A stretch of 64,000 bases of DNA from Escherichia coli (GTDB lineage: Bacteria; Pseudomonadota; Gammaproteobacteria; Enterobacterales; Enterobacteriaceae). The translations under genes were made by a program, and so were the position numbers. The stretch lies in assembly GCF_003790525.1 (NCBI RefSeq), contig NZ_CP033635.1. One strand, written 5' to 3'. Position 1 is the first letter of the stretch; every line of letters begins with the position of its first letter. Below, piece after piece: positions 32,479 to 56,793 of the stretch. Below the pieces are notes generated by a model, which was given only the letters and a program-made list of their open reading frames with translations, ran no database searches and was not told the DNA's origin.

Positions 32479-33750
32479 ATGCAGTATGAAGATGAAAACG
32501 GCGTGAATGAACCGTCACGCCGACGTTTACTGAAAGGGATTGGTGCGTTGGCGCTGGCGGGAAGTTGTCCGGTCGCTCATGCACAAAAAACGCAAAGTGC
32601 ACCGGGCACGCTTTCACCGGATGCGCGCAGTGAAGCGCAGCCGTTTTATGGCGAACATCAGGCGGGTATTCTGACGCCGCAGCAGGCGGCAATGATGCTG
32701 GTGGCGTTTGATGTGCTTGCCAGCGATAAAACCGATCTTGAACGGTTGTTTCGCTTGTTGACTCAGCGTTTTGCTTTTCTGACTCAGGGCGGAGCGGCAC
32801 CAGAAACGCCAAATCCGCGCCTGCCACCACTCGATTCCGGCATTCTTGGCGGCTACATTGCGTCCGATAATCTCACCATAACGTTATCGGTGGGCCATTC
32901 ATTGTTTGATGAGCGGTTTGGCCTTACACCGCAGATGCCGAAAAAGTTGCAGAAAATGACGCGTTTCCCCAACGACTCGCTGGATGCGGCGTTATGTCAT
33001 GGTGATGTGTTGCTACAAATTTGCGCCAACACCCAGGACACGGTGATCCATGCGCTGCGCGATATCATCAAACACACGCCGGATTTGCTCAGCGTGCGCT
33101 GGAAGCGGGAAGGGTTTATTTCCGATCACGCAGCGCGTAGTAAAGGCAAAGAGACGCCGATAAATTTGCTGGGTTTTAAAGACGGCACAGCCAATCCCGA
33201 TAGCCAGAATGCGAAGTTGATGCAAAAAGTGGTGTGGGTGACGGCAGATCAGCAGGAGCCTGCGTGGACAATCGGTGGCAGCTATCAGGCGGTGCGGTTG
33301 ATTCAGTTTCGGGTGGAGTTTTGGGACAGAACGCCACTGAAAGAACAGCAGACGATTTTTGGTCGCGACAAACAAACTGGTGCGCCGCTGGGCATGCAGC
33401 ACGAGCATGATGTTCCCGATTACGCCAGCGATCCGGAAGGGAAGGTGATCGCGCTGGACAGCCATATTCGGCTGGCGAATCCCCGCACGCCAGAGAGTGA
33501 GTCAAGTCTGATGCTGCGTCGTGGCTACAGTTATTCACTGGGCGTCACCAACTCCGGGCAACTCGATATGGGGCTACTGTTTGTCTGCTACCAACACGAT
33601 CTGGAAAAGGGCTTCCTGACAGTACAAAAAAGGTTGAATGGCGAGGCGCTGGAGGAATATGTCAAACCTATCGGTGGCGGCTATTTCTTTGCGCTGCCGG
33701 GTGTGAAGGACGCGAACGATTATCTCGGAAGCGCATTATTGCGGGTTTAA
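32479..33750 (+). CDS. efeB: Dye-decolorising (DyP-type) peroxidase EfeB, Tat-secreted
   Basis: 423-aa ORF with twin-arginine motif [16 protein letters not shown]. Confidence 0.9.
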
Positions 33751-33759
33751 TGTTTTTAG

Positions 33760-33905
33760 GCGTATAAGGCATTCGTGCGCAGATGCCTGATGCGACGCTT
33801 GCGCGTCTTATCATGCCTACAATCGGTGCGGGTTCGGTAGGCTGAATAAGGCGGTCACGCCGCATCCGGCGTTCGTGCGTTGATGCCTGATGCGAATCCT
33901 GCTGA
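33760..33905. repeat. REP/BIME cluster between efeB and phoH
   Basis: gcctgatgcgacgcttgcgcgtcttatcatgcctac and ggcggtcacgccgcatccggcg...gatgcctgatgcg units. Confidence 0.55.
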
Positions 33906-33927
33906 AAGCACACAGCTTTTTTCATCA

Positions 33928-33945
33928 CTGTCATCACTCTGTCAT
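33928..33945 (+). promoter_or_regulatory. Pho box (PhoB binding site) upstream of phoH
   Basis: Direct repeats CTGTCAT at 33928-33934 and 33939-33945 with 11-bp periodicity. Confidence 0.55.
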
Positions 33946-34094
33946 CTTTCCAGTAGAAACTAATGTCACTGAAATGGTGTTTTATAGTTAAATATAAGTG
34001 AATATATTGTTGCAATGAATGCGAGATCTGTTGTACTTATTAAGTAGCAGCGGAAGTTCCCGGCAGTGATAGTCAGTCACTATGGAGATCGCGG

Positions 34095-55740: not shown

Positions 55741-56793
55741 ATGCCAGTGTTACACAACCGCATTTCCAACGACGCGTTAAAAGCCAAAATGTTGGCTGAG
55801 AGCGAACCGCGAACCACCATTTCGTTTTATAAGTATTTCCACATCGCCGATCCTAAGGCGACCCGTGACGCTTTATATCAGCTGTTTACCGCGCTGAATG
55901 TTTTTGGGCGAGTGTATCTGGCGCATGAGGGCATTAACGCGCAAATCAGCGTACCTGCGAGCAATGTTGAAACATTTCGCGCGCAGCTTTATGCCTTCGA
56001 CCCGGCTTTAGAGGGCTTACGCCTGAATATCGCGTTGGAAGATGACGGGAAATCCTTCTGGGTACTGCGCATGAAGGTCCGCGATCGTATCGTTGCCGAC
56101 GGTATTGACGATCCTCACTTTGATGCCAGCAATGTGGGTGAGTATCTGCAAGCGGCGGAAGTGAACGCCATGCTTGACGATCCCGATGCATTGTTTATCG
56201 ACATGCGTAACCACTATGAGTATGAAGTGGGGCACTTTGAAAACGCGCTGGAAATTCCGGCAGATACCTTCCGTGAGCAGCTGCCAAAAGCAGTTGAGAT
56301 GATGCAGGCACATAAAGATAAAAAAATCGTCATGTACTGCACCGGCGGCATTCGTTGTGAAAAAGCCAGTGCCTGGATGAAACATAACGGATTCAATAAA
56401 GTCTGGCATATCGAGGGTGGAATTATTGAATACGCCCGTAAGGCGCGCGAGCAGGGCTTGCCGGTGCGTTTTATTGGCAAAAATTTTGTTTTTGACGAGC
56501 GGATGGGCGAACGTATATCTGATGAGATTATCGCGCATTGCCACCAGTGCGGTGCGCCGTGCGACAGCCATACCAACTGTAAAAATGATGGCTGCCATCT
56601 GCTTTTTATTCAGTGTCCAGTATGTGCGGAAAAATACAAAGGTTGTTGTAGTGAGATTTGCTGCGAAGAAAGCGCGTTACCGCCAGAGGAACAGCGACGC
56701 CGTCGGGCAGGACGTGAAAATGGCAATAAGATCTTTAATAAGTCTCGTGGACGTCTGAATACAACACTGGGCATTCCTGATCCAACAGAGTAA
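55741..56793 (+). CDS. trhO: tRNA uridine(34) hydroxylase TrhO (rhodanese-domain protein YceA)
   Basis: ATG 55741 ([43 protein letters not shown]...), 350 aa, rhodanese active-site Cys ([12 protein letters not shown]). Confidence 0.88.

Follow-up and report, generated by a model that had tools for sequence, protein, structure and literature searches.

The Pho box of the phoH gene of Escherichia coli is already known, having been described in 1993 and reconfirmed on a genome-wide scale in 2023. In 1993, Kim et al. are said to have mapped two phoH promoters with S1 nuclease, an upstream P1 and a constitutive P2, and P1 reportedly contains a pho box, is protected by PhoB and is phoB-dependent. 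As cited in later work, the same study assigns PhoB a positive role in the control of phoH under phosphate limitation. More recently, TGTCATCACTCTGTCATC was assigned to phoH as a PhoB ChIP-seq site in K-12, with a ChIP score of 11 that stands fifth-equal of 65 and is tied with that of the phoB site (PMC10294691). Deletion of phoB lowers phoH RNA in K-12 2.8-fold, from 37,076 in the wild type to 13,375 in the mutant (log2 1.5, q<0.01), which is a modest effect on total RNA, and the same RNA-seq table gives an induction of ~200-fold for phoA and ~770-fold for pstS (PMC10294691). In addition, sigma-70 occupancy at the phoH site is more than 2-fold lower without PhoB (PMC10294691). A second regulator of the OmpR/PhoB family, ArcA, also acts on this gene, and mutation of arcA derepresses it 25-fold (PMC3798270). 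A literature search for data on PhoB affinity or activation order at the phoH promoter returned none that were usable, and one paper found by that search lists phoH among the RegulonDB targets of PhoB; phoH is absent from the main text of the 2012 PhoB ChIP-chip paper.

The phoH Pho box in the window

The locus considered here lies in a window of 64 kb, the whole stretch of E. coli DNA that was analysed, in the intergenic region between efeB and phoH. Two exact copies of the heptamer CTGTCAT, located on the + strand at 33928-33934 and 33939-33945 and spaced 11 bp from start to start, make up the sequence CTGTCATCACTCTGTCAT (Table 1). The sequence-only reading had described two such repeats with 11-bp periodicity, about 150 bp upstream of the phoH long-form start, and both particulars are borne out, with the long-form ATG at 34095 lying 150 bp from the end and 167 bp from the start of the box. 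The heptamer alone occurs 12 times on the two strands of the window (6.6 +/- 2.5 in shuffles), and the paired motif CTGTCATN4CTGTCAT has a single match with no mismatch, all other matches needing three. From base composition, perfect matches to these 14 specified bases are estimated at about 5e-4 per 128,000 strand positions.

Table 1. Coordinates of the phoH control region and reading frames in the window.
Feature	Position	Strand	Remarks
Pho box	33928..33945	+	as 11-bp units: 33928-33938, 33939-33949
Predicted -10 hexamer GAAACT of P1	33956..33961	+	10 nt after the box; putative
ArcA-P binding region	33963..34016	+	four direct repeats; overlaps the predicted P1 start and the P2 -35
Predicted P1 transcription start	33967..33970 (near 33968; ~MG1655 1084864-1084867)	+	6-8 nt downstream of the -10
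Constitutive P2 core	34010..34039	+	TTGCAA 34010-34015, conserved TGnTGTAcTTA 34029-34039; putative hexamer assignment
P2 transcription start	34046..34046	+	mapped; 49-nt leader to the long-form ATG
phoH long-form ORF	34095..35159	+	354 aa, K-12 b1020 annotation; GGAG Shine-Dalgarno 34085-34088
phoH short form	34371..35159	+	262 aa; internal in-frame start, the only form that PGAP annotates (SMS-3-5 RefSeq)

A PhoB weight matrix was derived from 58 ChIP-seq motif instances (Fitzgerald et al. 2023, PMC10294691, Table 1 of that paper), with the phoH site left out. On this matrix, the 18-mer at 33929-33946 scores 18.8 bits and would rank sixth among the 58 training sites, whose median score is 15.1 bits and whose highest is 23.4 bits. 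A score of 18.8 bits was reached anywhere in only one of 200 random 64-kb sequences. Within the window, this 18-mer comes second, and the only site above it, that of agp, is itself a member of the training set. A PhoB matrix scan had been proposed as a check with the sequence-only reading, and on a matrix independent of the site the outcome is clear, the next independent match in the window having 13.7 bits. Two other matches to published PhoB ChIP-seq sites were noted in the window, namely the agp site AGTCATATTTCTGTCACA (15133-15150), which is separated by 36 nt from the agp ATG at 15186, and GATAAAAAAATCGTCATG at 56317-56334, inside yceA/trhO.

The region is nearly the same as that studied in K-12. 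Over 701 bp around the site, the window is 100% identical to E. coli SMS-3-5 and several other genomes, and the alignment of 33742-34110 with K-12 MG1655 contains no indels, with 33897-33999 identical throughout. The box corresponds to MG1655 1084825-1084842 (constant offset +1,050,897), and the centre of the K-12 PhoB peak, 1084845, falls at window position 33948, 3 bp from the box. PhoB occupancy and PhoB-dependent expression would be carried over to the present strain by this identity, all experimental data being those of K-12. The control of phoH by PhoB through a Pho box, as put forward in the sequence-only reading, is thereby supported by the K-12-identical region, the ChIP-seq peak and the loss of phoH RNA and of sigma-70 occupancy in the phoB deletion. 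All of the defining features of a Pho box that were tested are present. Taken together, the two repeats are assigned, with a probability of about 0.95, to the Pho box of the upstream, phosphate-starvation-inducible phoH promoter P1. The case is of value as a positive control, in which a true transcription-factor site was recognised from raw sequence in another E. coli strain.

Two further hexamers near the box were considered as additional half-sites and rejected. TTTCAT at 33920 is out of phase because it lies 9 bp upstream of the first repeat, and it is unconserved even in E. whittamii. TGTCAC at 33964-33969, 24 bp after the second repeat, is likewise out of phase and is conserved within Escherichia only; it forms part of the weak DR-1 of the ArcA site. 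On the other side, the box follows two REP-type elements by about 28 bp. These elements, between efeB and the box, are seen both as a direct repeat of 42 nt (33761 and 33861) and as weak naRNA4/REP Rfam matches (33744-33817 and 33840-33887).

Promoters P1 and P2 and the ArcA operator

A hexamer that could serve as the -10 element of P1, GAAACT, follows the box after exactly 10 nt and matches the -10 consensus at three of six positions. The box stands in place of the -35 element, and the sequence at the -35 position, ATCACT, matches TTGACA at three of six positions. When the boxes of phoA, pstS (proximal box) and phoB of MG1655 were aligned in the same manner, each was followed by a 10-nt gap and then by the -10 element (TATAGT, TATTTT and CATAAT, respectively). 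The P1 start in Table 1 is predicted from this geometry of box, 10-nt gap and GAAACT, and a start near 33968 would place the box at about -41 to -24. Such a canonical arrangement is consistent with P1, the upstream promoter under PhoB control in Kim et al. 1993.

The second promoter can be placed from published mapping. One phoH transcription start was recorded in phosphate-replete K-12, at 1084166 (NC_000913.2) with 221 reads and the upstream sequence ...TGTTGTACTTATTAAGTA (PMC3415461, Table S1), and it translates to window position 34046. This position is identified as P2, give or take a few nucleotides, because the numbering of the ArcA footprint relative to P2 agrees with it: the DNase I footprint extends from -80 to -21 relative to P2 (PMC3798270), which, numbered from 34046, corresponds to 33966-34025. 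The conserved blocks of the P2 core are also correctly placed for the mapped start. A generic sigma-70 scan returned only TTTATA-16-TATATT (33981-34008), which is no more than chance would give and misfits the mapped start. Folding of the 49-nt P2 leader (34042-34115) gave z = -0.68 against shuffled sequences with no favourable covariation, and an Rfam search of the promoter and leader returned no family apart from the weak REP-derived naRNA4 matches upstream. As to the alignment of the motif with a mapped promoter, which the sequence-only reading had singled out as the point on which it could fail, the mapped start at 34046 belongs to the constitutive P2, and the box has the canonical geometry relative to a -10 of its own.

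The P2 start lies about 100 bp downstream of the box, and the box is unable to substitute for the -35 element of P2 because its centre, some 109 bp upstream of 34046, is too far away. The same distance bears on the possibility that PhoB bound at the box acts from afar on P2, with no separate PhoB-dependent promoter directly downstream, which would agree with the recovery of 34046 as the only start and with the weakness of the predicted P1 -10. However, the cultures of the start-site dataset were phosphate-replete, so that a PhoB-dependent start is not expected in it, and PhoB boxes stand 10 nt from the -10 in phoA, pstS and phoB. Across genera, the hexamer that follows the phoH box is moreover conserved, and its 10-nt spacing invariant, and the ArcA paper, citing Kim 1993, describes P2 as the second of two promoters (PMC3798270). 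Action at a distance on P2 is accordingly considered very unlikely, and a PhoB-dependent P1 directly downstream of the box is preferred.

The ArcA-P site between the promoters has been given as ATGTCACTG...TTGCAAT (supplement of PMC3798270), and its GTT, GT.AA and TGTTGCA blocks are conserved across genera in a 20-genus alignment. The box repeat itself was examined as an ArcA operator and rejected in that role, since its heptamers are CTGTCAT and not of the TGTTA type, and since it lies upstream of both the ArcA site and the footprint, which begin at about 33963-33966. More broadly, the direct repeat might serve mainly another regulator of the OmpR/PhoB family, whether ArcA or a cross-talking one, with PhoB binding being incidental; ArcA-P does bind direct repeats immediately downstream, and many PhoB ChIP sites are transcriptionally inert according to the ChIP-seq paper (PMC10294691). 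This explanation is extremely improbable in view of the position of the box outside the mapped ArcA site with its TGTTA-type repeat, the perfect match of both half-sites to the PhoB consensus, and the drop in phoH RNA and sigma-70 occupancy upon deletion of phoB. PhoB is therefore retained as the regulator that the repeat serves.

Conservation of the box

Of 5426 complete E. coli genomes, 5417 carry the 200-bp control region. The 61 bp surrounding the box are unchanged in 2970 genomes and have one to three substituted positions in 2411, and the box is intact in all of the variants inspected (O157:H7 and the strains M00057 and 1919D62). A minority of E. coli genomes have an E. albertii-like flank, unrelated to the window, where the REP elements would be upstream of the box; for strains 1919D62 and YZ22PE165, the homologous sequence sets in precisely with the first base of the box, 33928.

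Beyond E. coli, 80 phoH loci were fetched from species-representative genomes, 72 of them with an aligned long-form ATG. In 70 of these 72 orthologous loci, the best + strand PhoB match within 400 bp of upstream sequence falls between -172 and -148, and it reaches at least 10 bits in 68 of the 70 (shuffled 400-bp null: mean 4.3, 95th percentile 9.7). Across loci, the + strand has a median score of 14.2 bits, against 6.8 bits for the - strand. This conservation upstream of orthologues agrees with Fig. 9 of PMC10294691. The box sequence itself varies by genus; Enterobacter, for instance, has CTGTTATATTTCTGTAAT and Citrobacter CTGAAATAATTCTGTCAT. In the 20-genus alignment, which has 63% mean identity, there is little or no variation in TG..AT of unit one, in TGT.AT of unit two and in A.ACT of the hexamer. 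Within the hexamer at 33956-33961, A2, C5 and T6 are invariant and A4 is conserved in at least 90%, with no indels from box to hexamer, and a hexamer of the form nA.[AT]CT occurs at offset 10 in 61 of 70 loci. The invariance of the spacing between box and -10 across Enterobacteriaceae and the coordinate-level map of the phoH control region are modestly useful by-products of the analysis.

The number of units differs in some lineages. A third in-phase unit, CTGTAA or CTGTCA, is found in four loci, from Pseudocitrobacter, Pluralibacter and relatives (L023, L026, L029 and L038), where it fills the gap from the two-unit box to the ACT of the -10, as in TTGATATAATT CTGTAATATTT CTGTCAGAAACT. Conversely, exactly one 11-bp unit, CTGTCATCACT, is missing in E. 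albertii (locus L011, ~2334-2352) and in Escherichia sp. MOD1-EC7003 (locus L003), which belongs to a cryptic Escherichia clade. E. albertii reads ...GCTCGCCA followed directly by CTGTCATCTTTCC, whereas E. coli 1919D62 (locus L091; YZ22PE165 is H50), with the same upstream flank, reads ...GCTCGCCT, then CTGTCATCACT, then CTGTCATCTTTCC. The single half-sites that are left score 3.7 bits (E. albertii) and 5.8 bits (MOD1-EC7003) on the PhoB matrix, against 18.8 bits for the complete box. From the deletion of one unit, loss of the PhoB control of phoH is predicted for E. albertii and the MOD1-EC7003 lineage.

A perfect 7-of-11 repeat can arise or vanish by slippage, and the absence of one unit in E. 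albertii and Escherichia sp. MOD1-EC7003 would suit an origin of the repeat by chance or by slippage-made tandem duplication, with no regulatory role. Against this origin stand the expectation of only ~5e-4 perfect matches per window, the retention of both half-sites at the same position in genera with differing box sequences, and the presence of PhoB on the site in vivo in the K-12 ChIP-seq data. For practical purposes, ChIP-seq and conservation refute it, and the probability left to it is negligible. The repeat is thus kept as the PhoB site of P1.

Reading frames and leader of phoH

Translation of phoH may start at either of two in-frame ATG codons (Table 1). The Shine-Dalgarno sequence and ATG of the long form at 34085-34097, GGAGATCGC..ATG, are invariant across genera, and AAGGTG followed by the ATG of the short form is invariant in 63 distinct orthologue sequences. 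By Ribo-RET, Meydan et al. identified the internal in-frame phoH start and found that both starts are used; they also observed enhanced synonymous conservation in phoH, the cause of which they left open.

The 92-codon N-terminal extension (34095-34370) varies between genera to a similar degree at each codon position, with differences of about 0.3, 0.3 and 0.35 at codon positions 1, 2 and 3, against 0.05, 0.03 and 0.43 in the PhoH domain. Moreover, Citrobacter, E. albertii, E. whittamii and 'E. coli' E69 have a 1-nt deletion at a T-run (~34247-34251) that puts the extension out of frame. The frameshifted ORF that begins at the conserved ATG has 98 codons and stops at the equivalent of 34390-34392, some 20 nt beyond the internal ATG (34371). 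A frameshifted long-form ORF in part of the E. coli population was considered and rejected, the E69-type allele being unmatched in 5,426 complete genomes. Among the matches listed, E. coli genomes span the T-run without an indel, and the long ORF appears to be intact in E. coli proper.

Nucleotide conservation amounts to 0.93-0.99 over most of 34270-34510, with a dip to ~0.85 near 34300-34345, and this interval shows a 2- to 4-fold suppression of synonymous changes that spans the internal start codon. The conserved block runs about 110 nt past the stop of the overlapping +1 ORF. As a whole, the block at 34265-34510 folds no better than shuffles on either strand (+, z = -1.0; -, z = +0.8). Two local hairpins are present in it, both ahead of the internal start of phoH. 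In the one at 34320-34337 (+), CGCGCUG-CCAA-CGGCGCG, five of the seven pairs show compensatory changes among the 63 distinct orthologue sequences, with 97.7% of cells paired, and its covariation score was reached by none of 500 shuffles. Sliding the partners cuts pairing to 19-54%, and G.U pairs occur in the + sense only. An invariant hairpin, UGGCUU-ACAAGG-AAGCCA at 34277-34294, lies 26 nt upstream of it. Rfam has no family over either hairpin, and the covarying one is, as far as could be found, previously undescribed. This covarying hairpin may account for the constraint on synonymous sites observed by Meydan et al.

A translated, structured leader is a possible reading of this segment, because it has no codon-position bias and suffers frameshifts, yet keeps an invariant start codon and the hairpins. 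By a wider and decidedly tentative proposal, which is judged doubtful at present, PhoB would be the first of two layers of control: an undescribed translated, structured leader of ~275 nt on the P1 and P2 transcripts would gate synthesis of the 262-aa PhoH. Independently of this leader, loss of a half-site may have unplugged phoH from the Pho regulon in E. albertii and the cryptic clade.

Genomic surroundings

Several other features of the window were recorded. Downstream of phoH, a DUF2726-domain gene (35722-36408) is followed by tRNA-Ser, whereas K-12 has pgaD and pgaC directly at this place; no pga gene is annotated anywhere in the 64-kb window. Rfam Ysr251, a Yersinia antisense sRNA, has a full-length match at 34961-35154 (-), antisense to the 3' end of phoH, with 192 bits against a gathering score of 100. 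Farther away, the matching SMS-3-5 record lists torS, at ~3036-5779 (-), as a pseudogene with a frameshift; these coordinates are approximate because the mapping of the window to the record is off by 1 nt at agp.

Proposed mechanism of phoH control

The following mechanism for the phosphate-dependent expression of phoH is the one best supported by these observations. Under phosphate limitation, PhoB~P would bind head-to-tail as a dimer on the two 11-bp units, each composed of CTGTCAT and 4 bp. With the box standing where a -35 element would be, PhoB could recruit sigma-70 RNA polymerase to the weak GAAACT -10 (33956-33961), and transcription from P1 would then start near 33968. The exact P1 start, the -10 element and the contact with sigma-70 region 4 are predicted by analogy with pstS and phoA. 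The PhoB-independent P2 (34046), about 80 bp downstream of P1, would provide basal expression, and this supply would account for the only ~3-fold dependence of total phoH mRNA on PhoB. ArcA-P, located between and over both promoters (33963-34016), represses phoH 25-fold under anaerobic conditions.

Comparison with known systems

The closest described system is the P1 Pho box of K-12 phoH (Kim et al. 1993, J Bacteriol 175:1316; PMC10294691), which has the same 18-bp sequence, the same efeB-phoH context and the same distance to the phoH start. No functional difference from it is seen, and the host strain belongs to a different, SMS-3-5-like lineage. Compared with K-12, the REP elements upstream carry a few substitutions, the ArcA/P2 region has G for A at 34000 and 34017, and the pga operon is missing downstream of phoH.

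The boxes of phoA, pstS and phoB resemble that of phoH in possessing two direct 11-bp units with CTGTCAT-like heptamers, in replacing the -35 element and in the 10-nt gap. In contrast, the spacers of the phoH box, CACT and CTTT, are less A/T-rich than those of pstS or phoA, and the -10 GAAACT is weaker than TATAGT of phoA, TATTTT of pstS and CATAAT of phoB. There is a single box at phoH, whereas pstS and ugpB have several. Unlike phoA, pstS and phoB, phoH also possesses an ArcA operator that overlaps and, some 80 bp downstream, a second promoter that is constitutive, which is why the induction of total phoH RNA is only ~3-fold. ArcA operators, as sites of the OmpR/PhoB family, follow the same 11-bp direct-repeat logic, and one of them adjoins the phoH box at 33963-34016. 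They are nonetheless distinct from the Pho box in their TGTTA-type repeat; ArcA acts here as a repressor, and its footprint leaves the Pho box uncovered.
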